A DNA stretch of 64,000 nucleotides from Candidatus Omnitrophota bacterium (GTDB lineage: Bacteria; Omnitrophota; Gorgyraeia; Zapsychrales; Zapsychraceae). The stretch is from NCBI GenBank assembly GCA_015233115.1, contig JADFYJ010000011.1, positions 17,824-81,823 on the forward strand, given 5' to 3'. Positions 8,180 through 45,784 of the stretch are shown here, piece by piece (within the stretch, counting starts at the first letter, position 1; the number at the start of each line of letters is the position of its first letter). The translations under genes were made by a program, and so were the position numbers. Under the pieces are notes generated by a model. It worked only from the letters and a program-made list of their open reading frames with translations. It made no database searches and had not been told where the DNA came from.

Positions 8180-8196
8180 TAAGGTCAAAAGCATTC

Positions 8197-8240
8197 GTAG
8201 GGGCGATCTCCTGATCGCCCGCAACAAAATTATCGCTTTT
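8197..8240 (+). repeat. REP-like hairpin-terminator element, direct copy
   Basis: The sequence gtaggggcgatctcctgatcgcccgcaacaaaattatcgctttt directly follows the PFOR gene. Confidence 0.8.
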
Positions 8241-8248
8241 AAATATAA

Positions 8249-8289
8249 CGGCAGGTGTTGGATGAAAATTCAACATCTGCCGTTTTTTT
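8249..8289 (+). terminator. rho-independent terminator
   Basis: The 12-bp hairpin cggcaggtgttg...caacatctgccg is followed by TTTTTTT. Confidence 0.75.
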
Positions 8290-9744: not shown

Positions 9745-12700
9745 ATGAGTAAATATAGGACTTCAAACAGTCTATTTGTGCGTAAATTAATAAGTATATT
9801 TCTTATATTTACCTTTATATTCTCTTCAATAAATATTCCGCAATATGCTTATGCTCAAACCGCGCCGCTCATGCCCGTTCCCGGAACTATGGTCGGGTTA
9901 ACTCCGCCGTTTAATCCGCCGGTTCTTAAAGGTATTAAAGTCTATCCAGACAACCCGCTTCGATTTGATTTCATTTTGGATAACGGCTTCGCCCTTATCC
10001 AAAATGACCCTGAGCGACCAGCGGGAGTCGAAGGGTTACAACAAGAAGCGAAAAAGCTTATCAAATATTTTCTAGCCTCACTGACTGTTCCCGAAAACGA
10101 TTTATGGGTCAACCTGTCACCGTACGAAAAAGGCCGCATTGTCCCCAAAGAGTTCGGCCAAACCGAAATGGGCCGGGATCTCTTGGCGCAAGATTATCTT
10201 TTGAAACAAATCACCGCGTCCCTAATGTATCCCGAAAATGAAATCGGCCGAGAATTTTGGGATAAGATATACAAAAAACTGTATTCCTCTCCCCTTCGGG
10301 GAGAGGGAAGGGTGAGGGGTTTAGATATTCCTATCGATACGTTCAATAAGGTTTGGATCGTCCCAGAAAAAGCCGTAGTCTTTGAAAATGGTTCGACTGG
10401 CTCACCATGGAACGCAGCTTATGTCGTTGAAAGTAAATTAAAAGTCATGCTCGAATCAGATTATCTTGCCGCGTCGAAAAATATTGCGTCCTCGTTCGTA
10501 GGGGAGGGTCCCCGCCCCTCCCGCATACAAGAATCCGCCAAACAAATCATCCGCGAAGTCATTATTCCCGCGATCGAAAAAGAAGTGAATACCGGTAAAA
10601 ACTTTGCCCAGCTCCGTCAAGTCTACAACTCTTTGATCCTTGCTGCCTGGTACAAAAAGAAAATCAAAGAAAGCTTATTAAGCAAAATTTATGTCGATAA
10701 AAACAAAATTACCGGCGTAAACATTGATGATCCTAAAGCTGCGGAAAAAATCTGGGCGCAGTACGTCGAGTCATTTAAAAAAGGCGTTTATAACTACATT
10801 AAAGAAGAATACGATCCAAATACACAGCAAATCATTCCGAAAAAATATTTTTCCGGCGGGTTTGATGCCGCTCAATTATTTGGCAACAAAATAAATTCTG
10901 CCCTAACAATAACGAAAGTATTGCCTTCCAATAAAGCAAATGAAGAGAAGCAGCGTAATAGTGTGGTTTCAGTCAATATGGATCCGGTTAATTTTTGGGG
11001 TAAGATTCAAAAACGACTAACTCCTTTCATATTTGCCGCTTCGTTGTTGACTACATCTTACAGCGCGCTTGGAGTTCAATTTTTTAATCATGAACTAGAA
11101 GGGCATGGTAAAGAGACATCAATTGCTTTAGTGCAAAAAGGTGACAGCTTCATTTCCATTGCCCAAGCCATATGTAAAAAAGCCAAAAAATCTTTTACTG
11201 AAGAGCAGATCAAAAGAGTAGCCGACGCCATTAAAGAGGATAATGCGAAAAATTTAAAAGGAGAAAATCTGTCTCCCGGAGAAAATTTAAACATCAATAA
11301 AGCTGAAGGATTGGTTTGGTCCATTGATCTCTTGAATAATTCCCAAATCGTGGCCACATCCAAGATTGCTATTGCAGGGAATCAGCCGATTGATGTTTAT
11401 TTCATTCGACCGGCAGATAAAAAGGAATTTAATAATTTTGTTGCGTTTGCGTCGATTGAAACCGGGCAGCTTTTTATGGATGTTGATCAGTTTGTTGAGC
11501 AATTGAATGTGTTTAAAAAAATTATAAAAAATCCCCGTTCTGTTTGGGCGAAGTTATATCAAGGGAAAAGTGATCAGTATATATTTGAACATTACATGGC
11601 GGAAATGATTTACCATGAATATGTTCACACCTTGACAACGCCTATCATCCGTTCAAAAAAATTTGATTCTCAAACAAAGGAGTTTAAGGAATACCTGCAA
11701 GATGATTCCCATGACATTTATCGGGTGGCAGAAGAAGTGTCTGCCTATTTAGCTCAAGCGTCTGTGAGCGAAGAACCGGCCATGGCATTGACGGGATTGG
11801 TAGATAAAATTGATTCGCAACAATTCGGAACAGATGATTATGCTGCGGCTGGTTTTGTTTTGATGCGCCAAATCATGACCCCATTAGGATATGAACAATA
11901 TTTATTAAACACCATGAAGCAGCAACAAGGACGGGAAATAACCGCAGACGAAAAAAAAGGTTTGCATGAAGCTTATGAATCGGGTTCGTATGCGATGAAC
12001 GAATATAGGGGTGTATTAGCAAAATTTTTGCTTCAAAATCCAAAAGATCAATTACGGCAATCAACACACGCTTCATTCAAAAATATATTCGGAATCGATT
12101 TGCCTGGCTTTACTCAATTTACAATTCCGAGACAAGTTATAGAGGATTATTCAACAAGAGGAGCAGAACATAAATTAATAGATGCTGGCGACGTTATTAA
12201 AGATCAGGCGATGATTGCGGGAAAATTAAAATCTAAAATTATTCGTGCCTTGGCGGTTTCGTTAATGGCATATTATTTTACGGGATCTGTTAAGGGTGCA
12301 GAGTTTACGGATATTTCTTTTCCTTATGGATATAAAACAACAGTGGCAAAAGCGCAGACAGGGGATACACCCGAATCAGTGGTGAGAAGATTTGTTGATT
12401 TGCAGGTTGTGGCACAGAAAAAGTATATGCCTTTAGGGGATACGGTTTGGGATGAATTTGTTAGTAAGTATGGTTTGATTGATAATTATGGAGTACTACA
12501 AGAAAAATTTATAGCGTTGAAAGATTTTAACGAGTTTAAGTCGGTTATTGGTGCAATGAATGAGGAATATGCAAAGAAAATATATGATTATTTAAAGTTA
12601 ATTCAGGAACATATCTATAAACTCAGCCCAGATGAAATTGCCCAGATAACCAGTAAAATTAGTAAAAATTTACAGAGAAAAATAGCAAACGGTAAATTTG

Positions 12701-15700
12701 TTCCAGGCGAAATTGTTGATTTGAAATCAGCAACCGAGGAGTTGCGTTTTATTTCAACGCTCAAAAGCGATGATATCGTGGGCAGCACAACTGTTACTAT
12801 CAATAAGAATCCAGTAGAAATTTATTTTGTGAATAAAGATACCGGGGTTAGGTTGGCGTATACGTCAGAAAACAGGGTGTTTATGAATTTAGGAAGTTTT
12901 CGGGCAATTCCTGGTGAAACAAAAGAGATTATAGCCGAAGCCACGAAGGAAAGTATTTCACAATTACAGGTACGAACTTTTCCGGCAGGTATTAAAGACA
13001 GTGAGATTTTCTTTTCTAAACTTAGAGAACTATTGGCTCATGAGTTTGCGCATACGTTGACTACAGCTTTAGTGGAAAGTGGCGCAGTTAAAATATACCC
13101 AGCGCCAGTTTCGGATAATGAATACATGGCAACCATGGAAGTGTCAGGGATTTTGGGTCAAATCGCGGGTAGCGACCATCCGGTTAAAACATTTGCAGAA
13201 TTCAAAGGTGCGGCACAAAGTCTTTTTTTCGAAGGCGGGCAACAATATATTATTGCTTCGCAAACGATTAGTGACCGTATGCTTGAGCTTTTGCATTTTG
13301 GTGATTATGTGCTTAAACGGGAAAATGAAAAACGCGATAAGTCAGAAAAGGAACCGTCTAAACCATTAACTGCGGATGATTTCTCGAATTTGAAGAAAGA
13401 GGCGGTTACTCAAATTATGACAGATCTTAAACAATCGGGTTATATTAATGCCGAAGGTAAAATTTTACAATGTCCTCTTTTGGGTGATGCCAGGGAATTT
13501 AAAATTAATGGTAAATATTCCGATAAAGAACGTGAAATGATTTATGACCGCTTACTGCGCTCATATGATCTTAATTCGTGGGGTGTGTCGGAGGATTTAA
13601 AAGATGGTGCTGTTTTTAAGGAGGATGCAATCGAATTTTTTCTAAAGTTAAATCCGGACGCCGTGCGTCAGGCGGCTCGCGATGTTCATAAAGCCATATT
13701 TGGCGTTGACCTGTCCACAGATCCTGTGACAATTCCTGATTTTGTGAAAGAGTATAGCATTAAGAAATATTTTCCTGCTGAAGAAACGACAAAAAGCCAT
13801 AAAGATCAAGCAATGATTGTAGGGCAATTAAAGTACAAAATTATTCGGGCCTTGGCGGTTTCGTTAATGGCATATTATTTTACGGGCGCTGTTAAGGGCG
13901 CAGAATACACAGATATTTCATTTCCTTATGGATATAAAACAACGGTAGCAAAGACTCAGCAAGGGGATACACCTGAATCAGTTGTTAAGAGGTTTATTGA
14001 TTTACAAGTGGTAGCACAAAAAAAGTTGATGCCCTTGGGAGATACGGTATGGGATGATTTCGTTAAGTATGGGTTTATTGATAATTTTGGCGTGCTTCAA
14101 GAAAAATTTTTGGCATTAAAAAATTTTGAAGATTTTAAAAAAGTTATCGGCCCAATGAAAGAGGAATATGCAAAGAAAATATATGATTACTTAAAGTTAG
14201 TTCAAGAGCATATCATTAAACTCAGCCCGGATGAAATTGCTCAATTAACAAGTAAAATTAGTAAAAATTCGGTGGTAAAAATAAAACATGGAAAATTTAG
14301 TCCTGACGAAATCGTTGATTTGAAATCCGCAACTGAGGAACTCAGTTTTATATTACAGCTTAAAAGCGACGATATTGTCGGGAGCACAACAGTTTCGATC
14401 AATAAGAAGCCGGTAGAAATTTATTTTGTGAACAAGGACACCGGTGTTCATTTGGCATATACTTCGGAAAACAGGGTCTTTATGAATTTAGGAGGTTTTC
14501 GGTCTGCGACAACTGACACAAAACAGATTATAGCTCAAGCCAAAAAAAATAGTATTAGTCAATTAGATGTACGCGCTTTTCCTGTAGGAACAACAGATAG
14601 CGACATTTTCTTTTCTAAGCTCAAAGAACTATTGGCTCATGAGTTTGCGCATACGTTGACTACAGCTTTAGTGGAAAGCGGCGCAGTTAAAATATACCCA
14701 GCGCCAGTTTCGGATAATGAATACATGGCAACCATGGAAGTGTCAGGGATTTTGGGTCAAATCGCGGGAAGCGACCATCCGGTTAAAACATTTGCAGAAT
14801 TCAAAGGTGCGGCACAAAGTCTTTTTTTCGAAGGCGGACAGCAATATATTATTGCGTCACGCACGATTAGTGAGAGGATGCTTGAATTGTTGCATTTTGA
14901 TGAGTATGTGCTAAAACGCGAACACGAAAAACAAGATAAGGTGAAAAAGGAGCCGTCGAAACCATTGAAAGCGGATGATTTTTTTGGTTTTGAAAAAGAG
15001 GCCGTCCCGAAAATTATGGCGGATCTTCAAGGTATGGGGTATATCGATAATAAAGGAAATATTTTACAATGTCCGCTTTTGGGTAATGCTAAAGATTTTA
15101 AAATCAAAGGTCATTATTCTGCTGAAGAACGTGAAATGATTTATCGATATTTATTAAGGGCATTTGATCATCATATGTTAGGTGTCTTGCTGCAGTTACA
15201 AGATGGAATCGCTTCAGACGAGGATGAAGTTGAATTTTTTCTGGGTTTAAATCCGGATGCCGTGCGTCAGGCGGCTCGCGATGTTCATAAAGCCATATTT
15301 GGCGTTGACTTGCCCACGAATCCTGTGACAATTCCGGATTTTGTAAAAGAGTATAGCATTAAGAAATATTTTCCTGCTGAAGAAAAGACAAACAGCCATA
15401 AAGATCAGGCGATGACAAATGAAGAAACAGCTGCAACTAACATGAATCAAAATATCGAGCAAGAGCCTATACCAGTCTTTGGCATGTCTCCATGGCGAAG
15501 GGATAACATAAGCTTCAAACAAATTACTGATGTTGGCCGGTTGAATGCTGCAGGTGTACGAAAATTAATCGGGTATATCGATTCACTCCCTGCTCCCGAA
15601 GTTGAGCAAATCATTAAATATTATATGGCTAAGGGTTTTGGTGTTAAGGCATATAAAAACGGAGAGATTTCTATCAATGGAGGGGCGGTATTTGTTTGGG

Positions 15701-16095
15701 ATCGTGTTAATCTGCAAAAGCTGATTAATCAGAATTTAGGCATTTTGAAAGCAGCCGGAATACCCAGTGATAAGGACGGCGGGATATCTGCGGATGATTT
15801 AGCTGACTATATTGCAAAACATAACGTATCTTCTGAAAAATATCCTGAAGCCTATGCCACCGTTGGAATAGCTTTTGCTGATTCTCGTTTTAATCAGCAG
15901 GCATTGGCTTTTAATAAAGGCGGTATTGACTTGAATCCTGTAGACAAAACCTTGCAAATTCAAAGCAACGGCGATGTCATTAAATTCAACATCGACCCTG
16001 CCATGCTGGAACAGTTAAAAAATGCTTCCGGTTTTTCGCCTATCATTATCAATATTACGCCGCTGAAGGATTTAAAAATGTTTTTGGGGATATGA
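9745..16095 (+). CDS. giant secreted modular protein (2116 aa), paralogue of 40775..45784, with three HExxH modules
   Basis: The signal peptide ends in PQYAYAQ. An N-terminal domain of about 330 aa and the C-terminal 50 aa are conserved with the second giant ORF. The central part is a tandem of modules of about 535 aa each, carrying HEYVH, HEFAH and HEFAH. Confidence 0.8.
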   Translation: MSKYRTSNSLFVRKLISIFLIFTFIFSSINIPQYAYAQTAPLMPVPGTMVGLTPPFNPPVLKGIKVYPDNPLRFDFILDNGFALIQNDPERPAGVEGLQQEAKKLIKYFLASLTVPENDLWVNLSPYEKGRIVPKEFGQTEMGRDLLAQDYLLKQITASLMYPENEIGREFWDKIYKKLYSSPLRGEGRVRGLDIPIDTFNKVWIVPEKAVVFENGSTGSPWNAAYVVESKLKVMLESDYLAASKNIASSFVGEGPRPSRIQESAKQIIREVIIPAIEKEVNTGKNFAQLRQVYNSLILAAWYKKKIKESLLSKIYVDKNKITGVNIDDPKAAEKIWAQYVESFKKGVYNYIKEEYDPNTQQIIPKKYFSGGFDAAQLFGNKINSALTITKVLPSNKANEEKQRNSVVSVNMDPVNFWGKIQKRLTPFIFAASLLTTSYSALGVQFFNHELEGHGKETSIALVQKGDSFISIAQAICKKAKKSFTEEQIKRVADAIKEDNAKNLKGENLSPGENLNINKAEGLVWSIDLLNNSQIVATSKIAIAGNQPIDVYFIRPADKKEFNNFVAFASIETGQLFMDVDQFVEQLNVFKKIIKNPRSVWAKLYQGKSDQYIFEHYMAEMIYHEYVHTLTTPIIRSKKFDSQTKEFKEYLQDDSHDIYRVAEEVSAYLAQASVSEEPAMALTGLVDKIDSQQFGTDDYAAAGFVLMRQIMTPLGYEQYLLNTMKQQQGREITADEKKGLHEAYESGSYAMNEYRGVLAKFLLQNPKDQLRQSTHASFKNIFGIDLPGFTQFTIPRQVIEDYSTRGAEHKLIDAGDVIKDQAMIAGKLKSKIIRALAVSLMAYYFTGSVKGAEFTDISFPYGYKTTVAKAQTGDTPESVVRRFVDLQVVAQKKYMPLGDTVWDEFVSKYGLIDNYGVLQEKFIALKDFNEFKSVIGAMNEEYAKKIYDYLKLIQEHIYKLSPDEIAQITSKISKNLQRKIANGKFVPGEIVDLKSATEELRFISTLKSDDIVGSTTVTINKNPVEIYFVNKDTGVRLAYTSENRVFMNLGSFRAIPGETKEIIAEATKESISQLQVRTFPAGIKDSEIFFSKLRELLAHEFAHTLTTALVESGAVKIYPAPVSDNEYMATMEVSGILGQIAGSDHPVKTFAEFKGAAQSLFFEGGQQYIIASQTISDRMLELLHFGDYVLKRENEKRDKSEKEPSKPLTADDFSNLKKEAVTQIMTDLKQSGYINAEGKILQCPLLGDAREFKINGKYSDKEREMIYDRLLRSYDLNSWGVSEDLKDGAVFKEDAIEFFLKLNPDAVRQAARDVHKAIFGVDLSTDPVTIPDFVKEYSIKKYFPAEETTKSHKDQAMIVGQLKYKIIRALAVSLMAYYFTGAVKGAEYTDISFPYGYKTTVAKTQQGDTPESVVKRFIDLQVVAQKKLMPLGDTVWDDFVKYGFIDNFGVLQEKFLALKNFEDFKKVIGPMKEEYAKKIYDYLKLVQEHIIKLSPDEIAQLTSKISKNSVVKIKHGKFSPDEIVDLKSATEELSFILQLKSDDIVGSTTVSINKKPVEIYFVNKDTGVHLAYTSENRVFMNLGGFRSATTDTKQIIAQAKKNSISQLDVRAFPVGTTDSDIFFSKLKELLAHEFAHTLTTALVESGAVKIYPAPVSDNEYMATMEVSGILGQIAGSDHPVKTFAEFKGAAQSLFFEGGQQYIIASRTISERMLELLHFDEYVLKREHEKQDKVKKEPSKPLKADDFFGFEKEAVPKIMADLQGMGYIDNKGNILQCPLLGNAKDFKIKGHYSAEEREMIYRYLLRAFDHHMLGVLLQLQDGIASDEDEVEFFLGLNPDAVRQAARDVHKAIFGVDLPTNPVTIPDFVKEYSIKKYFPAEEKTNSHKDQAMTNEETAATNMNQNIEQEPIPVFGMSPWRRDNISFKQITDVGRLNAAGVRKLIGYIDSLPAPEVEQIIKYYMAKGFGVKAYKNGEISINGGAVFVWDRVNLQKLINQNLGILKAAGIPSDKDGGISADDLADYIAKHNVSSEKYPEAYATVGIAFADSRFNQQALAFNKGGIDLNPVDKTLQIQSNGDVIKFNIDPAMLEQLKNASGFSPIIINITPLKDLKMFLGI
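12037..15420 (+). repeat. intragenic tandem duplication of about 1.6 kb (two full units plus a partial third) inside the giant gene
   Basis: Units at 12037-13650 and 13651-15249 with a partial third from 15250. The segment 13026-13262 against 14626-14862 is nearly identical at nucleotide level, while the flanks are only protein-level similar. Confidence 0.8.
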
Positions 16096-35396: not shown

Positions 35397-36767
35397 ATGA
35401 GAAAATTTTTATTAGCTTTGGCAGTGGTTGCGGTTGCAGCTATGCCGGCATTTGCTAGCGTTCAGAATTTGAAAGTTAGCGGAAACATCGATTCATCTTA
35501 TGTTTCAAGAACAAATTTTGATTTTGGTGTTGGAAGTAACCAAGGGAATTTAAAACAAAGCTTTTTCATGACCCAAGCTGATGTTAAGTTTGACGCAGAT
35601 CTTACTGACAATGTCAGCACGACTGTTGATTTAATCAATGAAAGAGTTTGGGGACAAGATCAAACAGCAGAAAACGGACAAGTAGATGTCAATTTAGCAT
35701 ATGTCACATTACGTGAAATGCTTTATTCTCCGTTAACTGTAGTGGTTGGTCGTCAACAATTTTCTTTTGGAAACAATTTGATCGTGTCTTCAGGTGGAAC
35801 AAATATTGCAAACGATAGCGGTATCAGAAATGTGGCTAATGATCTTTCTAAGCAACATGGTTTTGATGCCATCCGCGCGATTTTGGATTATAATCCTTTA
35901 ACAATCCAAGTTTTTGCGGCTAAAATTACCAAGAATAATGCTAGCGTTACCGCTTATTCTGAAAATAATGATTTAGATAGGGATCTCTTCGGCACGGATG
36001 CAACTTATGCCTTCGGAGATAAGATGAATTCACAAGTAGAAGGTTATTTCTTTGGGTTAAATGATAAAACGGGTAATGGAAATGCAGGTTCCAAGACTAA
36101 TGGAACTTATACACCTGGTATCCGCGTGAGTATGAATCCTATTGAAAGATTGAATGTGCAAGCAGAATATGCACACCAATTCGGCACATATTCAACTGGT
36201 ACAAATGATAACAGAACTCGTAATGCTAACGCAGCACAGTTCTTAGCCAGCTATAAAATTCCAGTTTTGGAAAAGTATGCGCCTGTAGCTAAATACGCCT
36301 TTACTTATGTTTCAGGAGACGTAAATGGTACTTCAGGTTCAACAGCTAATTATTATACTGGTTGGAATGCTATGTTTGAAGATCAAGGTTACCTCAATGG
36401 ATATTCTAAAATTTACAATGCCATGTTTGGTTTGTCTAATTTAGTTATTCATGAAGTTTCATTTGAAGCAAAACCGATGCAGGATATTACTACGTCTGTC
36501 GGTTGGTCAGGATTATGGTTATCTACACCGTATGATTCTTTGGCTGGATCATTTAGAACCATGTCAGGAACTTACGCAACGTATAACATGAATCCTAATA
36601 AGTCATTTTTAGGAAATGAATTCGATGGTACCATAACCTATGCTTACACAGAAGATGTTAAGATTGGTTCTACTATCGGCATGTTCGTTCCTGGAAAAGC
36701 ATTTGCTAATGCTAACAACGATGACAATGCTGTACAAGCAATGGTTAACATGAACGTTGCTTTCTAA
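35397..36767 (+). CDS. outer-membrane beta-barrel protein (porin-like)
   Basis: It has a signal peptide (MRKFLLALAVVAVAAMPAFA) and alternating amphipathic beta-strand composition that is aromatic-rich. The C-terminus ends in ...NVAF. GGGAGGAG RBS is present. Confidence 0.7.
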   Translation: MRKFLLALAVVAVAAMPAFASVQNLKVSGNIDSSYVSRTNFDFGVGSNQGNLKQSFFMTQADVKFDADLTDNVSTTVDLINERVWGQDQTAENGQVDVNLAYVTLREMLYSPLTVVVGRQQFSFGNNLIVSSGGTNIANDSGIRNVANDLSKQHGFDAIRAILDYNPLTIQVFAAKITKNNASVTAYSENNDLDRDLFGTDATYAFGDKMNSQVEGYFFGLNDKTGNGNAGSKTNGTYTPGIRVSMNPIERLNVQAEYAHQFGTYSTGTNDNRTRNANAAQFLASYKIPVLEKYAPVAKYAFTYVSGDVNGTSGSTANYYTGWNAMFEDQGYLNGYSKIYNAMFGLSNLVIHEVSFEAKPMQDITTSVGWSGLWLSTPYDSLAGSFRTMSGTYATYNMNPNKSFLGNEFDGTITYAYTEDVKIGSTIGMFVPGKAFANANNDDNAVQAMVNMNVAF

Positions 36768-36790: not shown

Positions 36791-36823
36791 AACCCTGTAC
36801 CGCCCTGGTACAGGGTTTTTTAT
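36791..36823 (+). terminator. rho-independent terminator
   Basis: The sequence AACCCTGTACC-gcc-CTGGTACAGGGTT is followed by TTTTTAT. Confidence 0.85.
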
Positions 36824-37039
36824 TTATCGTATATTTTTCCTCGTCCCTGCCTGCTGGTAGTCCGGAATCTTCCAAATTTTTAAAAAAATAATTCAGATTT
36901 TTATTTTCAATATAAAAGAATTTGTTATTATACTTTTAACACTTCATAAGCTCTGAGACATAAATTCTAGTTCGTGTCGCTGTTTAAAAAAGTGGGGGCT
37001 CTTGCACATTTCTTTCATTCGTAATTTTAGGAGTTATGT

Positions 37040-37630
37040 ATGGATAAAGATGAGATTTATGATCATCTGGCGCAGGTGTATTTGGGGAAGCGAAAGAATT
37101 CTGCGCAGAACAATCGTCGACAAAAACGTGAATTTGGCGCGTGGCTTTTAATAAATATTCTCATTACGGTATTGATATTTTCCGGTGTGTTTTATGGCTT
37201 GACAGCGTTTTTGGCCAACCGGGATCTTAAAAGCAATGTGGTTTATTTTTTGCATAACGGCTCGATTCGTCTGGCCTATGATTTTACTAATCCCGTCGTG
37301 CCGAGTCAGATATTCACGCTTAATGTGCGGGGGGTCGACGCCAACAAATTTGGAAGTTTAAAATTTTCGGTTCGGGCGAAAGAAGGCCGTCCGGGGATTG
37401 TAAAAGTTGTAGTGCACAACGAGCGCGGTGAAGAGGCTTACTATTACGTCCAAAGTGTCGGTGCTAAATGGCAGGAAGAAACTATTCCGTTAAGTCAGTT
37501 CCGTACCATTTCTGATTGGTCGACGCTGAAAAATGTTTCCTTTGTGCTGGAATCATGGAATGTCGACGATAAAAGAGGGTCAGTATTAATTGATAATTTA
37601 TGTTTTTCTGATGCAAATAATAATTCGTAA
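37040..37630 (+). CDS. membrane-anchored protein with C-terminal beta-sandwich (carbohydrate-binding-module-like) domain
   Basis: It has a basic cytoplasmic N-terminus, one TM helix and then a CBM-like domain ending VLIDNLCFSD. Confidence 0.4.
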   Translation: MDKDEIYDHLAQVYLGKRKNSAQNNRRQKREFGAWLLINILITVLIFSGVFYGLTAFLANRDLKSNVVYFLHNGSIRLAYDFTNPVVPSQIFTLNVRGVDANKFGSLKFSVRAKEGRPGIVKVVVHNERGEEAYYYVQSVGAKWQEETIPLSQFRTISDWSTLKNVSFVLESWNVDDKRGSVLIDNLCFSDANNNS

Positions 37631-37661
37631 TTTATGATAATTCATTAATCAGGGGGGAATA

Positions 37662-38744
37662 ATGAAAATCATTTCGATAGCAAATCAAAAGGGTGGGTGT
37701 GGTAAAACGACCACAGCCATAAATCTCGCTTCAGCACTTAGTGATAACGGCAAAAAAGTTTTGCTGCTTGATCTGGATCCGCAGGCGCATGCTTCACTGG
37801 GTTTAAACATTCAAAGCCGCGACAGCATTTATAATGTCATTTCGAATTTGACGCCGCGAAAAATGGCGCTCCGCGATATTATTCAGAGTGTGGAGGGAAA
37901 GTTTGACATTGTTCCGTCAAATATTTTAGTGGGAACGCTTGAGCAAGAATTAGCGGATGAAATCGGCCGTGAGCTCAAACTCAAAGAAGTGTTGAATTCG
38001 ATCAAAGATGAATATGATTATATTTTAATTGACTGCGCACCGAGTTTAGGAATTCTGACGGTCAATTCGATCCGGGCGAGCGATGAACTCATTCTTCCTG
38101 TTGAGACCAGCCGTTTCGCGATGCAGGGTGTTGAGCATTTGACGGATATTGTCAATTTGATCAAGGAACGCCTTAATCATTCGGTGGATTGCAAAATTTT
38201 GATTACGATGTTTGATTCCCGCTTGCGTCATTCTTTCTCGATGTTGAAAATTTTCCGCGATAAATATCAGGAAATGTTGTTTGACACGATAGTTCACACG
38301 AATGTGAAATTAAAGGAATCCGCTGTGGTGGGGCAGACTGTTGTGACATTTGATAAATATTGCCGCGGGGCCAAAGATTATCAGGCACTGGCAAAAGAAA
38401 TGATTATGTTGTCAGGCCAGTCCAAAGGCCCGGAAGTGTTCTCCAGCCACATGCGCGAAGTGATCCGCCGTGAAATGCAGGATTGTTTGATGGCGAAATT
38501 TAGAGTTGAAGCGCCAGGGGCCAAGACCGTTTATTTAACCGGCAGTTTTAATGACTGGACGATTGACGAGAATTTTAGAATGCGCAAGGAAAACGGGGAA
38601 TGGGATATCCAAGTACCGTTAAAACCAGGCCGTTATAAATATCAATTCGTGGTTGATGGCGTATGGAAAGCAGATCCGATTAATGTTCAGCAGGAACGCA
38701 ATTCGTTCGGGGATGTCAATTCCGTCGTAGAAATAAATGGTTAG
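37662..38744 (+). CDS. ParA/MinD-family ATPase fused to a C-terminal AMPK-beta/CBM48-type glycogen-binding domain
   Basis: It has a deviant Walker A (ANQKGGCGKTTTAINLA) and a ParA fold. The C-terminal roughly 90 aa (TVYLTGSFNDWTIDENFRMRKENGEWDIQVPLKPGRYKYQFVVDGVW) match the CBM48 or E-set glycogen-binding domain. Confidence 0.75.
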   Translation: MKIISIANQKGGCGKTTTAINLASALSDNGKKVLLLDLDPQAHASLGLNIQSRDSIYNVISNLTPRKMALRDIIQSVEGKFDIVPSNILVGTLEQELADEIGRELKLKEVLNSIKDEYDYILIDCAPSLGILTVNSIRASDELILPVETSRFAMQGVEHLTDIVNLIKERLNHSVDCKILITMFDSRLRHSFSMLKIFRDKYQEMLFDTIVHTNVKLKESAVVGQTVVTFDKYCRGAKDYQALAKEMIMLSGQSKGPEVFSSHMREVIRREMQDCLMAKFRVEAPGAKTVYLTGSFNDWTIDENFRMRKENGEWDIQVPLKPGRYKYQFVVDGVWKADPINVQQERNSFGDVNSVVEING

Positions 38745-38754
38745 GGGATGATTT

Positions 38755-39072
38755 ATGAGCCAGTTTGATGAACAGCAGATTGTTGACGGAAAAGTAATGG
38801 CTGTGCTTGCTTATTTGACCGTCTTATGTATTATTCCGTTATTGTTTCAAAAAAATAATGAGTTTGTTTTATATCATGGAAAACAGGGATTAGTCATTTT
38901 TGTCGCAGAAGTGGGAATTTTTATTCTGCATATTTTGTTAGGAGTATTGATTTTAAAGATCGGAATGTTTTTGATGCTATTGTTCTCCTTTGTAGGCATC
39001 ATCGCCGTCCTACAAGGCCGCCAGATCAATTTGCCGGTCATTTCAGAGATAGCGGAGAAGATTGTATTATAA
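38755..39072 (+). CDS. DUF4870-family small membrane protein
   Basis: It carries the motif AYLTVLCIIPLLFQKNNEFVLYHGKQGLVIF. Confidence 0.55.
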   Translation: MSQFDEQQIVDGKVMAVLAYLTVLCIIPLLFQKNNEFVLYHGKQGLVIFVAEVGIFILHILLGVLILKIGMFLMLLFSFVGIIAVLQGRQINLPVISEIAEKIVL

Positions 39073-39132: not shown

Positions 39133-39489
39133 ATGTTTAGTTTTGAAAAATTGGAAGTTTGGCAGGAATCTTTAAAGTTAGTTTTAGAGATAAATAAACT
39201 GACCAAGATTTTTCCTAAAGAAGAAATGTTTGCGTTAAGTAGTCAAATGAAACGTGCTGTATTGTCGATTTCTTTAAATATTGCAGAGGGTTCGGGTCGA
39301 TCTACAAAGTTAGATTTTAAAAGGTTTGTTCAAATAGCTATCGGTTCAACTAATGAAACAGTTACGTGTTTATTTGTAGCAAAGAATCAAAAATATATTG
39401 ATGAAATTATTTTTTCACAATTTTATTTAAAATTAGAGTCAATTTCGAAGATGTTGTATTCGATGGAAAAATATTTAAAAGTCAATTAA
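39133..39489 (+). CDS. four-helix-bundle protein (23S rRNA intervening-sequence protein family, TIGR02436-like)
   Basis: 118 aa with the family-typical LEVWQESLKLVLEINKLTKIFPKEEMFALSSQMKRAVLSISLNIAEGSGR. Confidence 0.75.
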   Translation: MFSFEKLEVWQESLKLVLEINKLTKIFPKEEMFALSSQMKRAVLSISLNIAEGSGRSTKLDFKRFVQIAIGSTNETVTCLFVAKNQKYIDEIIFSQFYLKLESISKMLYSMEKYLKVN

Positions 39490-39528: not shown

Positions 39529-39711
39529 ATGAAATCTTTTCGTCGTCATCAAGAATTAGGTCAAAATCTTATTGAATATACTATGGTTTTTATTTTGGCA
39601 GTTCTCGTATTGATTGTTTTTTTGCGGCCTAAAGGACTATTTGTCAATCAGGTCAATAAATCCTTGGATCAGGCCGTCTCGTTTATTGGTCAAGAATTAA
39701 AGAAAAAATAG
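39529..39711 (+). CDS. Flp-family type IVb pilin-like small protein
   Basis: 60 aa. The G-x4-IEYT motif is followed by a hydrophobic helix (GQNLIEYTMVFILAVLVLIV). Confidence 0.5.
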   Translation: MKSFRRHQELGQNLIEYTMVFILAVLVLIVFLRPKGLFVNQVNKSLDQAVSFIGQELKKK

Positions 39712-39713
39712 GC

Positions 39714-40139
39714 ATGAAAAGTCTCGACAGTAATCAAAAAAATTTGACCCGCCGTTATCTCAGCTGGTGTTACAAGACCACAAAAGAAGATCTGGACCGA
39801 ATTGACCGCTATTTTACTCAATTGACAGTCGATGATTTTATTTTAAATAAACTGCGCGGTTCCAAAGAATTCAAAGTATCTGCGAACAAAGATTTTGCAA
39901 AATTAGTTAATGATTTCGGAGATTACCGGAATAAGAAAGAAGAGCGGGTTTTAGCGCAAAAATTTGAAAATCAAGCCCGTAAAGTTTTACAGCCGCAGTA
40001 TTTATACCTCCAAAAACGCTTTCAAGCCATTGAAGCCGCGATCGTTCATTTTTTAGGCGATAAAGAATTGAAAAAGATAATTGATGCTTATGAACGAGAA
40101 ATGACGACACGGATACTTCAATCAAGGGAACACAAATAA
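39714..40139 (+). CDS. hypothetical protein
   Basis: 141 aa and helical. Its start overlaps the previous stop codon. Confidence 0.5.
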   Translation: MKSLDSNQKNLTRRYLSWCYKTTKEDLDRIDRYFTQLTVDDFILNKLRGSKEFKVSANKDFAKLVNDFGDYRNKKEERVLAQKFENQARKVLQPQYLYLQKRFQAIEAAIVHFLGDKELKKIIDAYEREMTTRILQSREHK

Positions 40140-40774: not shown

Positions 40775-43700
40775 ATGTTTTCTGCAAAAAAAGTTATTTC
40801 ATCTGTTTTACTGGTCGTTATTTCTTTAACCTTTACAGTGCCGCCGCAATATGCGCAAGCACAATTTGTATTGACGCCAAGCATTCCTGCGCCAACAAGT
40901 TACGTTCCTGTTATAATCAAGGGCGTAAATCTTAATCCGCAGAATCCGCTCAAGTTCGATTTTATTATCGACCGAGGAACTTCCTCCGCTGATTTGCCTT
41001 TGGCAAATCAAAGCGCGGAGGCTGCGTTTCGTTCCGAATCGCAGAAACTAATCCGCTACTTTTTAGCTTCTTTAACTATCCCCCAAAAAGATATGTGGGT
41101 TAACCTTTCGCCGAATGAGCCAGACAGAATTGTGCCACAAACTTTTGGTAACACAGAAATGGGCCGCGATTTATTAGCGCAAGATTTTATGCTGAAACAA
41201 CTGACAGCCAGTCTCATGAGCCCGGATGGAGAAGTGGGACGAAAGTTTTGGGATAAAGTCTACGCCAAAATTTACGAAACTCCCTCTCCCCTTCGGGGAG
41301 AGGGTAGGGTGAGGGGTTTAGAAATCCCCACCGACATTTTTAACAAAGTCTGGATTGTCCCATCTAAAGCCAAAATTTATGAACATGAAAAAGGTGCGTT
41401 TATTACAGATACAGCGTTTAAAGTCATGACAGAGCGCGACTATGTCGCGCAGACACAAGACACAGGACACAAGTCACAAGAAGGACAAGATGCTGTGACC
41501 TTACAAATAGTCAAAGATGTTATCATCCCCGCTATTGAACAAGAAGTCAACCATGGCAAAACTTTTGCTAACTTGCGCCAGATCTATAATTCTCTTATCT
41601 TAGCCATGTGGTACAAAGAAAAAGTTAAGAAAAGCGTGCTCGGCCAGGCTTACTCTAATAAAGAGAAGACTTCTGGTCTAGAAGTCGCCTCAAATGAAAA
41701 ACAAAAGATCTACCAACAATATCTCGACGCTTTCCGTAAAGGCGCGAGTAATGCGATTAAAGAAGAATATGATCCCAATACCCAACAAATTGTAGCCCGG
41801 AAATATTTCTCTGGCGGTATTCAAGCAGATCAGGCACAAATTTCATTAGCTACAAAAGAGGAAATGGACGCGGCTATGAAAGCTGCCATTGCCACGGAGA
41901 ATGTTGCGACGGTAATTCAGTTTGCAGGAGCCAAAGCCCCTGACGCGGCGATGACCAGCGAAATTGTTAAAGAAATAGTTAAAAGTTTTGTTGAAGATTT
42001 TAAAAGAAAGCGTCTACCTGGTGGTTTTAATTTTTCTGTTGATGCCCAACAAAGCGGAGAAGATGTTATAGTTACAATTGAACAAACTACCAGGTCTCTG
42101 CCCCCGATACTAATTCAAGATTTTTATCACTATGTTAGCTGGTTGACAAATAAATTTACTTCTCCAATTAAATTGACACCGATGGATAGTCTGAGTGCGT
42201 ATATGCGTAAATTTAAAATTTCCGACGCGGCGATGATGTCTGTAGAGAAATACAATCGGGTGATAAAAGATGCTGAGCAAGCTTGGGGAGGAGAATTGGA
42301 GCGAGCGGATCAATTGGTTGAGTTTTTGAAAAATCGATTTAATCCTGAAAAAGCTTTGGAATCAGGAGCGATTTTTATTCCCAGGGCTGTGGTGCAGAAT
42401 GAAGCGCGGATGGGTTTAACGCCTATTGGGATTAAACTGTTAAAAAGTTTAGGCATTAAAAATGAAATTTATGTCGAAGCTGCAGCAGGAATAAATCGGC
42501 AGAGTGGCAAGGTTTATTTCACGGATGCGTATTACATAAATGCTGGAGCAAAAATTTTGTCCCATGATGAATTTTATAAACGGGCGGAACAAGCAGATAA
42601 AAAAGTTGTGGTGAGCATTAAGGAACCGCAAGAATCAGAATACAAATTATTAAAAAACGCGCTGTTATTTACTTATTTGCATTTGGCGGATAGCCCTAAG
42701 TTGACTCAGGATTTGTTAAATTTATTAGCAACTGGTGTGGCGTATGAAACTATTGCTTTTAAAACGCCAGAGGGGATAACCAGAACTCCGGTGTTAGCTC
42801 CTGCCAGTATTGCCGCTGGGTGGGTCAGCGCGGCCCGTACTGCCGCATTTTTTGGGGGGATAATTAATGACGAAAGACAGCGTATATTTGCAGAATCATT
42901 ACAGTATTATGCCACTTCTGAAAATTTCCCTCTTAACTTGCGGAAAAGTTTAGAAGGAATAACTGTAACTGTTCTGGGCGGCGGAGTTGCCGGAGAAAGC
43001 GCAGCCATAACTCTCGCGAAAATGGGAGCAAAGGTTTATATCACAGAAGTTAATCCTAAAAGGATCCTGGAGTTAGAAAAGATAATCACTTCACAAGGAT
43101 TAGGATTAGCGATTACAGTTTTAAAAAGAGATCTTTCTGTTCCACGGGTCTTTGACCAATTTCGAACAGAATTGTTAGAATCATCCGCGATAATTGGCGC
43201 CGTTCTTATCCCCGGAGCCAAGGCGCCGAAAGAGATAGATGAATCAACATATGAAGCGCTGGTCAAAGGAGGAAAATTTAAATTTTTTGCTGATATAGCG
43301 ATTGATCAAGGCGGAAATAACGTCAGAAGTGTCGCGCGTAAATATCAAGATGGCTGGCCTATGGATGAAAATCGAGTCGGACAATTTACTGTGACAAACA
43401 TGCCCAGCGTTGTTCCTTTGCAGGTTTCATTTGGTTTGGAACGAGCCAAATTAGCGTATTTAGTAGCGCTTTTGATGGGCACACCAGAAGCGGTCAAGGC
43501 GTTTCCCGAATTAGAGCAGGGTGTGAACATCCGTAATGGCCAGATCACGAATAAGCCGGTCGGGGAAGCGGTTAGAATGGATGCTGTTTCATTAAAAGAA
43601 GCAGATGAAGCAATCGCGACAGTTGATGCGGCGATGACCGTAGACCCGTTTAATCTTACTACAAAAAATGTGGCGGAATGGGATAATATTCAACGGGCGA

Positions 43701-45784
43701 TAACTGATGATGTTATTTCTAACCGGGTCATTCCTTTAATTAAAGGCAGTTATTTGAAGGGGGTAGAAAAAAATCAGTTAATAAACACAATTCAAAAACT
43801 ACGGGAAATATCTTCGGTTGATTTTGAAAAAAGCAAAAAAGATAACCCGCTTCATCACAGTTTTATAGTTCTGGATATTGTGTTACAGATTGCTTTTGGA
43901 AAAAAATTATTCTATCCGGAAATTAAAAAACTGGCAGCTTTAGCCATTCTGCATGATTTAGGTTATGGCGCGTTAGAAGAAAGCAAAGGTCGTATCAGTA
44001 GTGGTAAGATTAAACAAATGATTAAGGATTATGAGCTTCAAAAGGATAGTTTATCCAAGGAACTGAGGGAGGAAAAAGTAGCGGCAATAAAAAAAGCCAT
44101 TCAAGGTGCTATTGATGCTAGAAATGAGCATATGGAAAAAGGCGTTTTTATAGCTCAAATATTGTTAGAGAAATTTAATAAAGAAGATTCTGATCCGGAC
44201 GATAAGTTTAGTCCTGAAGATATTAAGGAGATATGTGCGTTAGTCGGGATGCATGATAATCCTGGTATTGCTAAGACGTATGAAACTGAAGAATATAAAC
44301 CATATATATCTGGATCAGCTGATAAATTACTTATTGGTAAAGATAAGCAACTAGCGCTTATTTTTCGTGAAGCAGACAGATTGTGGATGCTTTCCTATGA
44401 AGGATTAATAAAGGATTTAATGGATAGTTTGCTTAAAGGTGACAACCCTCTCTCTGTTGAGAAACAGCTCGTCAATAATATCGCTGTATTTAGTGATGAA
44501 CGAAAGTCATACGATGCGACAGGTAAAGATTATGGCAATTTTAAAGGCGATACTTTCATTAGAACTGACACAGGTTATAAAATATATAAAGATTTTATCC
44601 AGGCATGGCAAAAGATAATCAAAGATCATGCTGCTTTAGTGAAGGCTTTTAAAATCCAAAGGTTTGATTTTAATAGAGCGACCGATACTGCGATGACTGC
44701 ATTTGAAGAGAAGAGACAGACTTTTAGAGATAATTTATTAGCTATAGTGCAAAAGGGCTGTCAACCTAGTGGACTCTCCATATTGAGAAAGCAAATAACA
44801 GAGTTTATCATTTTAGAACAAGATTCGCCGTATCTCTCCAGATTTTTATATAATTTTTTAAATGATCTAGTTGAATTGCATCAGTCTTTAAATGCTGACA
44901 AAGCCGATGCTTTATATTCCTTATTTCACAATTTAAATGACTGGGTGGCAGGAATAAAAACTAGTAATGGAGCCATCTTAATAGATTATTGGGTTGAGAC
45001 AGAAAACGGAAAAATGAAATTAGAAAAAAATAAATCATGGATCTATTCTCGCGATATAGTGATTAGGGATACGATTTTCTTAATTTTGTTACGTAATTTA
45101 TTGATCAACATGCCAATGACTGCAGATTTTAAAGAAACAAGTGCCGGAAAAATTCCTGATATGAAATCGGTTCTGGAAGTCGATAAAAATTTTAAGATGC
45201 AGCTTAATTTGCTTAAAGGAATTAATCCTCAAAAATTAAGCAGTCTTAAGAAAAATTTTGCAGGAGCCATATCGTCAATAAAGGCATGGTCAGAGGTTTC
45301 TGAAGTATGGGATAACGTTGAAGGCGTTGTCTCAATCGTCTCGTCTCCTTGTCAAGAATCCGCGAAACAATTGAATGATTTTTATGCAAGCATTCCCGAC
45401 AAGGCGATGACAGTGGATGAGGAAAATAAAACAGACGGTGGTATCGACTTAAACGCCGCGCAGTTTTCCGTTGGAGTTGATAAACAGGGAAAAGGGTTTG
45501 AATATAATGTGGATCCGGCTATGTTACAGCAATTCATCAACGCGCCGGGGGTTAACGCGATTATTACCAATATTCAGCCGATTACCAATTTGCCGGTGTT
45601 TTTGGGGTTGGCAGTGGGGAAACCCCGTAAAATCGCTTATGCGATCACGGGGTCGGAAAAAACTGATCAAGTCGCGCTTCAGCTTTCTTTATTGGATGTC
45701 ATGGATAGCTTGACGATAAGGTTCGGGTATGATACATTTATTTTGAAAAATAAGGAGGTCGATTGCCAACAATTTTGGTCGTAG
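40775..45784 (+). CDS. giant secreted modular protein (1669 aa), paralogue of 9745..16095, with alanine-dehydrogenase/PNT-like and HD phosphohydrolase domains
   Basis: The signal peptide ends in PQYAQAQ. The N-terminal domain and the C-terminal 50 aa are shared with giant gene 1. The centre has AlaDH-like blocks (FTYLHLA, GVAYETIAF, LGGGVAGESAA) and HD motifs (LHDLGYG, GMHDNPG). Confidence 0.8.
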   Translation: MFSAKKVISSVLLVVISLTFTVPPQYAQAQFVLTPSIPAPTSYVPVIIKGVNLNPQNPLKFDFIIDRGTSSADLPLANQSAEAAFRSESQKLIRYFLASLTIPQKDMWVNLSPNEPDRIVPQTFGNTEMGRDLLAQDFMLKQLTASLMSPDGEVGRKFWDKVYAKIYETPSPLRGEGRVRGLEIPTDIFNKVWIVPSKAKIYEHEKGAFITDTAFKVMTERDYVAQTQDTGHKSQEGQDAVTLQIVKDVIIPAIEQEVNHGKTFANLRQIYNSLILAMWYKEKVKKSVLGQAYSNKEKTSGLEVASNEKQKIYQQYLDAFRKGASNAIKEEYDPNTQQIVARKYFSGGIQADQAQISLATKEEMDAAMKAAIATENVATVIQFAGAKAPDAAMTSEIVKEIVKSFVEDFKRKRLPGGFNFSVDAQQSGEDVIVTIEQTTRSLPPILIQDFYHYVSWLTNKFTSPIKLTPMDSLSAYMRKFKISDAAMMSVEKYNRVIKDAEQAWGGELERADQLVEFLKNRFNPEKALESGAIFIPRAVVQNEARMGLTPIGIKLLKSLGIKNEIYVEAAAGINRQSGKVYFTDAYYINAGAKILSHDEFYKRAEQADKKVVVSIKEPQESEYKLLKNALLFTYLHLADSPKLTQDLLNLLATGVAYETIAFKTPEGITRTPVLAPASIAAGWVSAARTAAFFGGIINDERQRIFAESLQYYATSENFPLNLRKSLEGITVTVLGGGVAGESAAITLAKMGAKVYITEVNPKRILELEKIITSQGLGLAITVLKRDLSVPRVFDQFRTELLESSAIIGAVLIPGAKAPKEIDESTYEALVKGGKFKFFADIAIDQGGNNVRSVARKYQDGWPMDENRVGQFTVTNMPSVVPLQVSFGLERAKLAYLVALLMGTPEAVKAFPELEQGVNIRNGQITNKPVGEAVRMDAVSLKEADEAIATVDAAMTVDPFNLTTKNVAEWDNIQRAITDDVISNRVIPLIKGSYLKGVEKNQLINTIQKLREISSVDFEKSKKDNPLHHSFIVLDIVLQIAFGKKLFYPEIKKLAALAILHDLGYGALEESKGRISSGKIKQMIKDYELQKDSLSKELREEKVAAIKKAIQGAIDARNEHMEKGVFIAQILLEKFNKEDSDPDDKFSPEDIKEICALVGMHDNPGIAKTYETEEYKPYISGSADKLLIGKDKQLALIFREADRLWMLSYEGLIKDLMDSLLKGDNPLSVEKQLVNNIAVFSDERKSYDATGKDYGNFKGDTFIRTDTGYKIYKDFIQAWQKIIKDHAALVKAFKIQRFDFNRATDTAMTAFEEKRQTFRDNLLAIVQKGCQPSGLSILRKQITEFIILEQDSPYLSRFLYNFLNDLVELHQSLNADKADALYSLFHNLNDWVAGIKTSNGAILIDYWVETENGKMKLEKNKSWIYSRDIVIRDTIFLILLRNLLINMPMTADFKETSAGKIPDMKSVLEVDKNFKMQLNLLKGINPQKLSSLKKNFAGAISSIKAWSEVSEVWDNVEGVVSIVSSPCQESAKQLNDFYASIPDKAMTVDEENKTDGGIDLNAAQFSVGVDKQGKGFEYNVDPAMLQQFINAPGVNAIITNIQPITNLPVFLGLAVGKPRKIAYAITGSEKTDQVALQLSLLDVMDSLTIRFGYDTFILKNKEVDCQQFWS
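41452..41490. repeat. in-frame heptamer array (ACACAAG family) inside giant gene 2
   Basis: The sequence cagacacaagacacaggacacaagtcacaagaaggacaag encodes TQDTGHKSQEGQD in a linker. Confidence 0.6.

Follow-up and report, generated by a model that had tools for sequence, protein, structure and literature searches.

A ParA-type ATPase fused to a CBM48 module in Omnitrophota, with a plausible role in organising glycogen granules

ParA/MinD ATPases position chromosomes, plasmids, carboxysomes, chemoreceptor arrays, flagella and the divisome; we know of no machinery that places or partitions bacterial glycogen granules. In this study, we analysed a 64,000-nucleotide stretch of DNA from a Candidatus Omnitrophota bacterium (contig JADFYJ010000011.1; the whole stretch is referred to here as the window). 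We describe a fusion protein encoded in it, ParA-CBM48, in which a ParA-type ATPase carries a C-terminal carbohydrate-binding module (CBM) of the AMPK-beta type, together with the membrane protein encoded just ahead of it, which we call its partner. Judged from motifs and predicted structure, the fusion is a catalytically complete Soj-like ParA with a CBM48 on a variable, flexible linker. We consider it possible, with a probability of roughly 0.4, that the two proteins make up a positioning system of the ParA type with two components, the module that binds alpha-glucan (glycogen) being part of the ATPase.

The closest described relatives of the ATPase are the chromosomal ParA/Soj proteins (Myxococcus xanthus ParA, 8RAY; Thermus thermophilus Soj, 1WCV/2BEK; Helicobacter pylori Soj, 6IUB; and Bacillus subtilis Soj), with which it shares the fold (TM-score about 0.9 and 32-36% identity in Foldseek), the deviant Walker A motif with its signature lysine, the aspartates of Walker A' and Walker B and the conserved arginine. 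As in ParABS systems, the N-terminal peptide of the fusion's partner reads LGRGL in many lineages, as it does in ParB. Unlike in ParABS systems, the fusion adds a linker and a CBM48 and has a cysteine in Walker A, and for a partner it has a membrane protein or a pseudo-ParA rather than a CTPase DNA clamp. A parB gene is likewise missing nearby: no open reading frame (ORF) with the ParB-box motif GERRxRA was found in the window or in 84 GTDB-derived loci (up to 10 kb of flank), and no ParBc Pfam domain among the scanned neighbours of the fusion. The McdA/McdB (carboxysomes), PpfA/TlpT and ParC (chemoreceptor arrays) and PomZ/PomXY systems resemble the present one in that an orphan ParA stands beside a small unrelated partner with a conserved N-terminal peptide, the nucleoid being the presumed matrix and the cargo a non-DNA cytoplasmic body. 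In those systems, however, the adaptor binds the cargo, whereas here the recognisable cargo-binding module is on the ATPase; McdA is a more distant structural match. The fusion is also reminiscent of MinD, as both have a C-terminal appendage whose effective affinity would double upon ATP-driven dimerisation, but its C-terminus is a CBM48 and not an amphipathic membrane-targeting helix, minC and minE are lacking and no min genes lie near it in the window. With BcsQ it would share the tie of a ParA/MinD protein to polysaccharide biology and to membrane partners, though no bcs genes are present in the window or in related loci. For a polysaccharide granule as ParA cargo no precedent was found in the literature. 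A search for publications linking a ParA or ParA-like protein to glycogen, CBM48 or granules returned nothing relevant, although the spelling 'ParA/MinD' may have escaped it, and this agrees with the statement of an earlier first-pass annotation of the window that such a function has not been described for ParA proteins.

Pfam AAA_31 covers residues 1-175 of the fusion (1.4e-55), with additional matches to CbiA, MipZ and ParA, and the closest sequence in the PDB is that of M. xanthus ParA 8RAY (1.3e-49), followed by H. pylori and Thermus Soj. The ATPase contains the deviant Walker A motif KGGCGKT (within NQKGGCGKTT) with the signature lysine K10 and with K15, the aspartates D37 and D39 and the Walker B aspartate D124. 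Its R187, located in 'MFDSR', is the equivalent of B. subtilis Soj R189, the arginine for non-specific DNA binding. An AlphaFold2 model built from a 120-sequence alignment (mean pLDDT, the predicted local distance difference test score, of 84.6) has a confident ParA fold and, beyond a low-confidence linker, a separate eight-stranded beta-sandwich at residues 276-358 (pLDDT ~91). In Foldseek the ATPase half matched Soj of B. subtilis, Thermus and H. pylori and M. xanthus ParA with target-normalised TM-scores of 0.83-0.90 and E values down to 8e-24; ParA proteins took up the list of matches. With both the motif and the three-layer alpha/beta fold of Soj and MinD present, the fusion belongs to the ParA/MinD deviant-Walker-A superfamily. 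At the C-terminus, AMPK1_CBM (PF16561) covers residues 286-359 (E=7.3e-16), its 58.6 bits exceeding the gathering cutoff of 26.8, and CBM_48 (PF02922) reaches 30.5 bits where 22.4 are required. Used by itself, the stretch of 111 aa at the C-terminus matches the crystal-structure chains of the rat and human AMPK beta1 and beta2 CBMs at 3e-8 to 5e-7 (3.3e-8 for the beta1 CBM 1Z0N), and also the CBM48 modules of pullulanase and GlgB. These Pfam, PDB-sequence and AlphaFold2 matches are far beyond chance. The first-pass annotation had proposed a ParA/MinD domain with a deviant Walker A motif at the N-terminus and an AMPK-beta/CBM48 fold at the C-terminus, and had suggested modelling the latter; both assignments are borne out by the family scores, and the model supports them, the second at the level of a beta-sandwich. 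The linker is 32-128 aa long among the 120 homologs and rich in E and K, and its length, variability and composition fit a flexible tether.

The fusion is an orthologous family that is near-universal in Omnitrophota. A scan of one genome per GTDB species yielded at least 592 relatives, and 80 loci were kept, in each of which one ORF covers both domains; residue conservation was scored over the 84 GTDB-derived loci and over the 120 closest homologs. Among 8,000 scored candidates 7,994 match the fusion at E<=1e-5, and the top 120 (56-100% identity) all contain both domains. Outside Omnitrophota, at 35-45% identity, the fusion occurs in metagenome-assembled genomes (MAGs) labelled with about ten lineages (delta proteobacterium, Thermodesulfobacteriota, Desulfobacterales, Myxococcota, Phycisphaerae, Sedimentisphaerales, Pirellulales, Spirochaetales, Fibrobacteraceae, Margulisiibacteriota, Eisenbacteria and Gammaproteobacteria), labels that can be imprecise for MAGs. 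A search seeded with a Myxococcota member added 2,851 proteins, all of uncultured sources, and gave no cultured host, every named match being a MAG. K10, K15, D37, D39 and D124 are invariant in the 84 loci and in the 120 homologs; in the 84 loci Walker A is always the unusual KGGCGKT, and R187 is kept in 82 of them. Database labels for the fusion are limited to 'AAA family ATPase' and 'chromosome partitioning protein'. When the CBM was used alone to search 1.84 billion representatives, the domain type proved very common (9,459 representatives), and secreted proteins with 3-18 tandem CBM copies prevailed in the ranking (signal-like N-termini in 126 of 150); matches that had looked like stand-alone CBMs turned out to be fragments of ParA-CBM48 genes. 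One large family of such proteins (P0241-P0362), whose members mostly bear a signal peptide, repeats this CBM48 subtype 3-18 times in tandem, many members being ~480 aa long with four copies; one tandem-CBM48 protein, from Hydrogenedentota, is named 'glycogen-binding domain-containing protein'.

The module resembles the CBM48s of AMPK beta (1Z0M/1Z0N), SEX4, GlgB and pullulanases in sequence (3e-8) and in the size of its beta-sandwich; unlike them, it is joined to a P-loop ATPase and not to a kinase scaffold or a glycoside hydrolase. In an alignment with rat AMPK beta1, the sugar-contact residues W100, K126, W133, L146 and N150 correspond to W299, Q328, W335, F349 and N353. W299, W335 and N353 are identical in the two proteins, and F349 is a conservative replacement, L146 being replaced by F or Y in the fusion family. 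In the 120 closest homologs the five positions vary little or not at all, and both tryptophans are invariant in the 84 loci wherever the region is present. Outside the subclade of the window, most members have K or R at the position of K126: K in 23 and R in 12 of 35 distant members, and mostly R in the sister Omnitrophota subclade. For the family as a whole, the predicted sugar-contact residues are thus in place.

The partner was not matched by any Pfam or NCBIfam model. Its predicted structure (pLDDT 85) consists of an N-terminal helix, one transmembrane helix and a beta-sandwich at residues 68-190, for which the best PDB matches in Foldseek were CBM11 (2e-7), CBM28, CBM4-2, CBM30 and CBM29, at 8-22% identity. 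Among its 391 homologs all named ones are from Omnitrophota, and the N-terminal peptide is the best-conserved part of the protein. According to the positive-inside rule this peptide would be cytoplasmic and the CBM-like domain would lie outside the cytoplasm, so that the latter could not bind the same cytoplasmic glucan as the fusion. The first-pass annotation was therefore right in describing the upstream gene product as a transmembrane protein with a CBM-like beta-sandwich at the level of fold, but the domain belongs to no matched sequence family and cytoplasmic glucan would be out of its reach. It had further suggested that the cargo-recognition module is fused directly to the ATPase; that no adaptor would then be needed does not hold, as next to every such ATPase there is a partner gene whose N-terminal peptide is conserved.

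In the core Omnitrophota loci the partner gene is directly upstream in 49 of 49 (median gap ~22 bp). The class of partner differs by lineage, being an upstream membrane protein, as in the window, or a downstream pseudo-ParA. In distant lineages without a membrane partner, the next downstream gene starts with the ParB-like sequence '(K)LGRGL[E/S]D[I/V]S-x-[L/I/F]FLS'. A motif of this type near the N-terminus is found in only 16 of the 5,227 ORFs of all loci, and 14 of these 16 ORFs start -78 to +46 bp from the ParA-CBM48 stop codon. The Myxococcota-type loci follow this pattern, with 'KRGLDEVFHYFIPE' and 'RRGLGDVLHHFISE'. Some LGRGL-type partners are divergent ParA/MinD-like P-loop proteins. 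An LGRGL-type peptide was sought in the window and not found, the system there using the transmembrane type of partner. In a third group, the gene upstream of the fusion encodes a single-pass membrane protein with '..QLAD(I/V)YFS..' ahead of the transmembrane helix, and hhalign shows remote homology between such proteins and the window's partner (probability 90%, E=1.5e-6). The N-terminal peptide of ParB, which contains aliphatic and basic residues, docks as a helix at the interface of the ParA dimer, activating the ATPase (PMC12462528), and 'HLAQVYLGKR' in the window's partner may be the equivalent ATPase-engaging peptide. In one locus (L052), a second protein of 627 aa (13725-15608, + strand) has the same 'KKLGKGLEDISTLFLS' peptide and lies 2.6 kb past ParA-CBM48 and its +1 partner, which suggests that one ATPase may serve several clients.

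The link to alpha-glucan metabolism comes from the gene neighbourhoods of related loci. A recurrent neighbour of about 520 aa (cluster c4) was identified in a Pfam tally as a glycoside hydrolase of family GH57; the same tally ruled out that it is a second porin. The protein matches the structures of the Aquifex aeolicus amylopullulanase (8e-86), lacks a signal peptide and retains both catalytic blocks, WPsE and DGEN, and it is predicted to be a cytoplasmic amylopullulanase-like enzyme; the A. aeolicus GH57 amylopullulanase cleaves both the alpha-1,4 and the alpha-1,6 bonds of branched glucans (PMC12106739). In 27 of 30 loci of the sister subclade the GH57 gene immediately precedes the partner gene (median gap ~55 bp), and this adjacency is the strongest support for an alpha-glucan link. 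The same GH57 is present two genes upstream in a distant locus (L049). In a locus from a Thermodesulfobacteriota MAG (L060), a divergent GH57 adjoins a stand-alone CBM48 ORF of 101 aa, the pair (6337-8256, - strand) being located 2-3 kb downstream of ParA-CBM48 and its LGRGL-type partner. Another locus (L083) encodes a GH13 maltodextrin-glucosidase-like enzyme with a CBM48 near the fusion, and two Myxococcota-type loci (L085 and L086) have a phosphoglucomutase-family gene within 2 kb of it. Glycogen synthesis has been inferred for most, not all, Omnitrophota MAGs (Williams et al., PMC8542988), including Ca. Zapsychrus exili, and this organism carries the fusion (P0053). The neighbourhoods of the two Myxococcota-type loci (L085, 8626-18683; L086, 8827-19221) have a storage-polymer theme of their own: Ppx-GppA is encoded divergently upstream and the phosphoglucomutase-family protein downstream, and further on there is a pair of ArsA/ParA-like ATPases beside a PHB_acc_N/phasin-like gene, which could be a second granule-related ATPase system.

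MinD gains membrane affinity when two of its C-terminal helices are paired, and ParA-CBM48 might work by analogy. ATP-bound dimers would sit on the nucleoid, each presenting two tethered CBM48 modules, and the paired modules would provide a bivalent, avidity-dependent grip on cytoplasmic glycogen granules. The N-terminal peptide conserved in the partner, which is the membrane protein here and a pseudo-ParA in other phyla, would dock on the ParA dimer and bring about ATP hydrolysis and release. Cycles of binding and release could then distribute, tether or partition the granules, and in the sister lineages they might also keep the granules accessible to the co-encoded GH57 amylopullulanase-like enzyme. 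Granule positioning is plausible in our view. Somewhat less probable, and put forward tentatively, is the fuller proposal that the family is a previously unrecognised class of ParA, spread over about ten lineages, in which the CBM48 is a cargo receptor on the ATPase and a ParB-like peptide is carried by a membrane or pseudo-ParA partner, and which organises and partitions glycogen granules.

Several observations weigh against the proposed positioning of granules. In classical ParA systems the cargo is bound by the partner and not by the ATPase, and the partner in the window is a membrane protein with an external domain and has no obvious role in granule positioning. Position 328 is Q throughout the window's own subclade, and in the isolated AMPK beta1 CBM the substitutions W100G and K126Q each abolished glycogen binding (review PMC6274970). 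In terms of the contact residues, of which the first-pass annotation had named the tryptophan and the lysine, both stacking tryptophans and the asparagine are kept in the window protein, but the equivalent of Lys126 is a glutamine. K326, two residues before Q328 and on the same strand face, accompanies it in most of the subclade, and one may speculate that it compensates for the lost lysine. The GH57 gene is beside the operon in 0 of 19 loci of the window's subclade, no GH57 remnant was detected in the window by tblastn, and none of the genes in the 64 kb is a glycogen gene. Because the Lys126 equivalent is a glutamine and GH57 is not adjacent, glucan affinity or specificity may be altered in this subclade. 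Furthermore, the GH57 linkage is phylogenetically clustered and represents a few independent events rather than 27, and CBM48-like folds are also found in non-glycan roles, an example being a weak match to a T9SS plug protein.

The window has a GC content of ~40% with nearly all genes on the + strand, and the transcription unit probably consists of the partner, ParA-CBM48 and a small membrane protein (Table 1). The latter has no Pfam match at E<0.01; its orthologs show weak matches to MamF_MmsF (PF09685), a MamF/MmsF-like gene stands at +1 in at least 29 core Omnitrophota loci, and in four loci (L001-L004) the +1 ortholog overlaps the ParA stop codon. A link to magnetosomes through the MamF/MmsF name was set aside, as the Pfam matches are weak and the gene is conserved beside ParA-CBM48 in at least 29 Omnitrophota species-level loci. 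The terminator-like hairpin and the promoter-like site between the barrel gene and the partner gene suggest that the operon starts at the latter; both are consensus matches only, and the number of such sites is no higher than in shuffled sequences. In at least 35 core loci an AlgE-like barrel is encoded at -2 or -3, with a terminator-like site between it and the operon, and it is uncertain whether it belongs to the system. The 141-aa protein further downstream may belong to it.

Table 1. Features of the ParA-CBM48 locus and its surroundings, with positions in the window
Feature	Position	Strand	Remarks
Barrel gene	35397-36767	+	About 456 aa, signal peptide; orthologs match Pfam Alginate_exp (AlgE-like outer-membrane beta-barrel)
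Terminator-like hairpin	36791-36817	+	12-bp stem and T-run, 3' of barrel gene
Sigma-70-like promoter match	36904-36931	+	Downstream of hairpin
Partner gene	37040-37630	+	Bitopic membrane protein, 196 aa; directly upstream of ParA-CBM48; ORF confirmed
Partner, N-terminal peptide 'M-RDEIYDHLAQVYLGKR'	37040-37093	+	Near-invariant, predicted cytoplasmic; followed by Lys/Arg cluster
Partner, transmembrane helix	about 37136-37213	+	About residues 33-58, single hydrophobic helix
Partner, jelly-roll beta-sandwich	37241-37609	+	Residues 68-190, predicted extracytoplasmic
ParA-CBM48 fusion	37662-38744	+	360 aa; ORF confirmed
Fusion, ParA/Soj-type ATPase domain	37662-38411	+	Residues 1-250
Fusion, flexible linker	38412-38486	+	Residues 251-275; pLDDT <50 at 254-259
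Fusion, CBM48/AMPK-beta-type module and stop codon	38487-38744	+	Residues 276-359; contact equivalents W299, Q328, W335, F349, N353
Small polytopic membrane protein	38755-39072	+	105 aa; 10 bp past ParA-CBM48 stop; hydrophobic segments
141-aa protein	39714-40139	+	No Pfam match; homologs at +1 to +3 in 40 of 49 core loci

Between the small membrane protein and the 141-aa protein there are two further ORFs on the + strand. The first (39133-39489) encodes a 23S rRNA intervening-sequence family protein (PF05635, 3e-36) and is not found at this position in L001-L004. The second (39529-39711) encodes 60 aa, 'MKSFRRHQELGQNLIEYTMVFILAVLVLIV...', with a hydrophobic helix after a G-xxxxEY motif and no Pfam match; we take the motif to be a Flp-pilin-like prepilin motif. 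In L003 and L004 a 64-aa ORF takes its place, just before the conserved 140-aa gene. Elsewhere in the window, a 1669-aa protein of unusual architecture (40775-45784, + strand) has a hydrophobic N-terminus and an internal alanine dehydrogenase/PNT N- and C-domain pair at residues 535-927, with no family assigned to the remainder, and a 2116-aa ORF (9745-16095, + strand) is without a Pfam match at E<=1e-4; Omnitrophota are reported to encode giant proteins (bioRxiv 10.1101/2023.11.21.568195). Over positions 1-64000 the GC skew is positive in 31 of 32 2-kb bins, and of 37 ORFs with at least 150 aa 33 are on the + strand; the window lies on one replichore whose genes strongly favour the leading strand, and it shows no signal of an origin or terminus.

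Two other roles for the protein would leave the glycogen granule out as cargo, and we regard both as unlikely. The CBM48 could be a glycogen sensor, as in AMPK, with glucan occupancy tuning the dimerisation or ATPase activity of ParA, while the cargo is the partner complex: the bitopic protein, the MamF/MmsF-like protein and perhaps the outer-membrane barrel, or the pseudo-ParA partner in other phyla. This would agree with the way in which ParA cargo is normally carried by the partner, which here is always co-encoded, with the fact that both flanking operon genes in the window's clade encode membrane proteins, and with the several clients suggested by the second protein with the same peptide 2.6 kb away in L052. 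AMPK itself uses its CBM for glycogen-dependent inhibition (PMC6274970). However, the long, variable and unstructured linker suits a tether better than a packed allosteric module, the GH57 co-operon points to glucan as substrate or cargo, and none of the partners has a known function. Alternatively, the ATPase could position an envelope complex without any link to glycogen in this clade, placing or assembling a trans-envelope complex of the barrel, the bitopic CBM-like protein and the small membrane protein in the manner of BcsQ or of TadZ-type localisers of secretion machines, with a CBM48-like domain that now binds a protein or another ligand. The invariant glutamine at the Lys126 position in a subclade that is also without a GH57 neighbour would be readily accommodated in such a scheme, as would the conserved synteny with the AlgE-like barrel and two membrane proteins, the presence of BcsQ and FlhG/FleN among the structural relatives and the nearby ORF that we take to be Flp-pilin-like. 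It is less easily reconciled with the invariance of the tryptophan pair, of Asn353 and of the aromatic residue at 349, which would be unexpected had sugar binding been lost, or with the link of the sister-clade orthologs to GH57. In addition, the terminator-like hairpin parts the barrel gene from the operon, the conserved neighbours include neither polysaccharide synthase nor Tad genes, and the fusion scores far under the cutoffs of the BcsQ (TIGR03371; 78.1 bits against 157.85) and MinD models (TIGR01968; 53.7 bits against 212.9).

It is quite improbable that the protein is a plain chromosome-partitioning ParA (Soj) with an accessory C-terminal domain and a ParB encoded elsewhere. Its nearest solved relatives are chromosomal ParA/Soj proteins, the presumed DNA-binding arginine is kept, automated annotation calls it a 'chromosome partitioning protein', and mnmG/gidA is found two to three genes downstream in three distant loci. 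On the other hand, the absence of a ParB-box ORF from the 84 loci and the window, the score of 116.7 bits with the NCBIfam model NF041546 (ParA_partition), below the cutoff of 180, and the conservation of the family-specific KGGCGKT together with a dedicated non-ParB partner gene all speak against this reading. The characterised Myxococcota ParA (8RAY, 255 aa) has no CBM, and the fusion is thus most simply read as an extra paralog in that lineage.

Taken on its sequence, ParA-CBM48 is a real and hitherto undescribed variant of the ParA/MinD positioning systems, and it is plausible that it organises storage-glucan granules. As every named member found is from an uncultured MAG, work on it will need heterologous or in vitro systems. 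The natural variation between K or R and Q at a key sugar-contact residue provides a built-in comparison, and a fusion family that is present in many lineages and often co-encoded with a debranching-type GH57 offers a testable molecular handle on the placement of glycogen granules. If the proposed role is correct, the system would follow a different design, with the cargo receptor on the ATPase and the activator peptide on a membrane or pseudo-ATPase partner, and glycogen would be the first polysaccharide storage body known to be actively positioned in bacteria.

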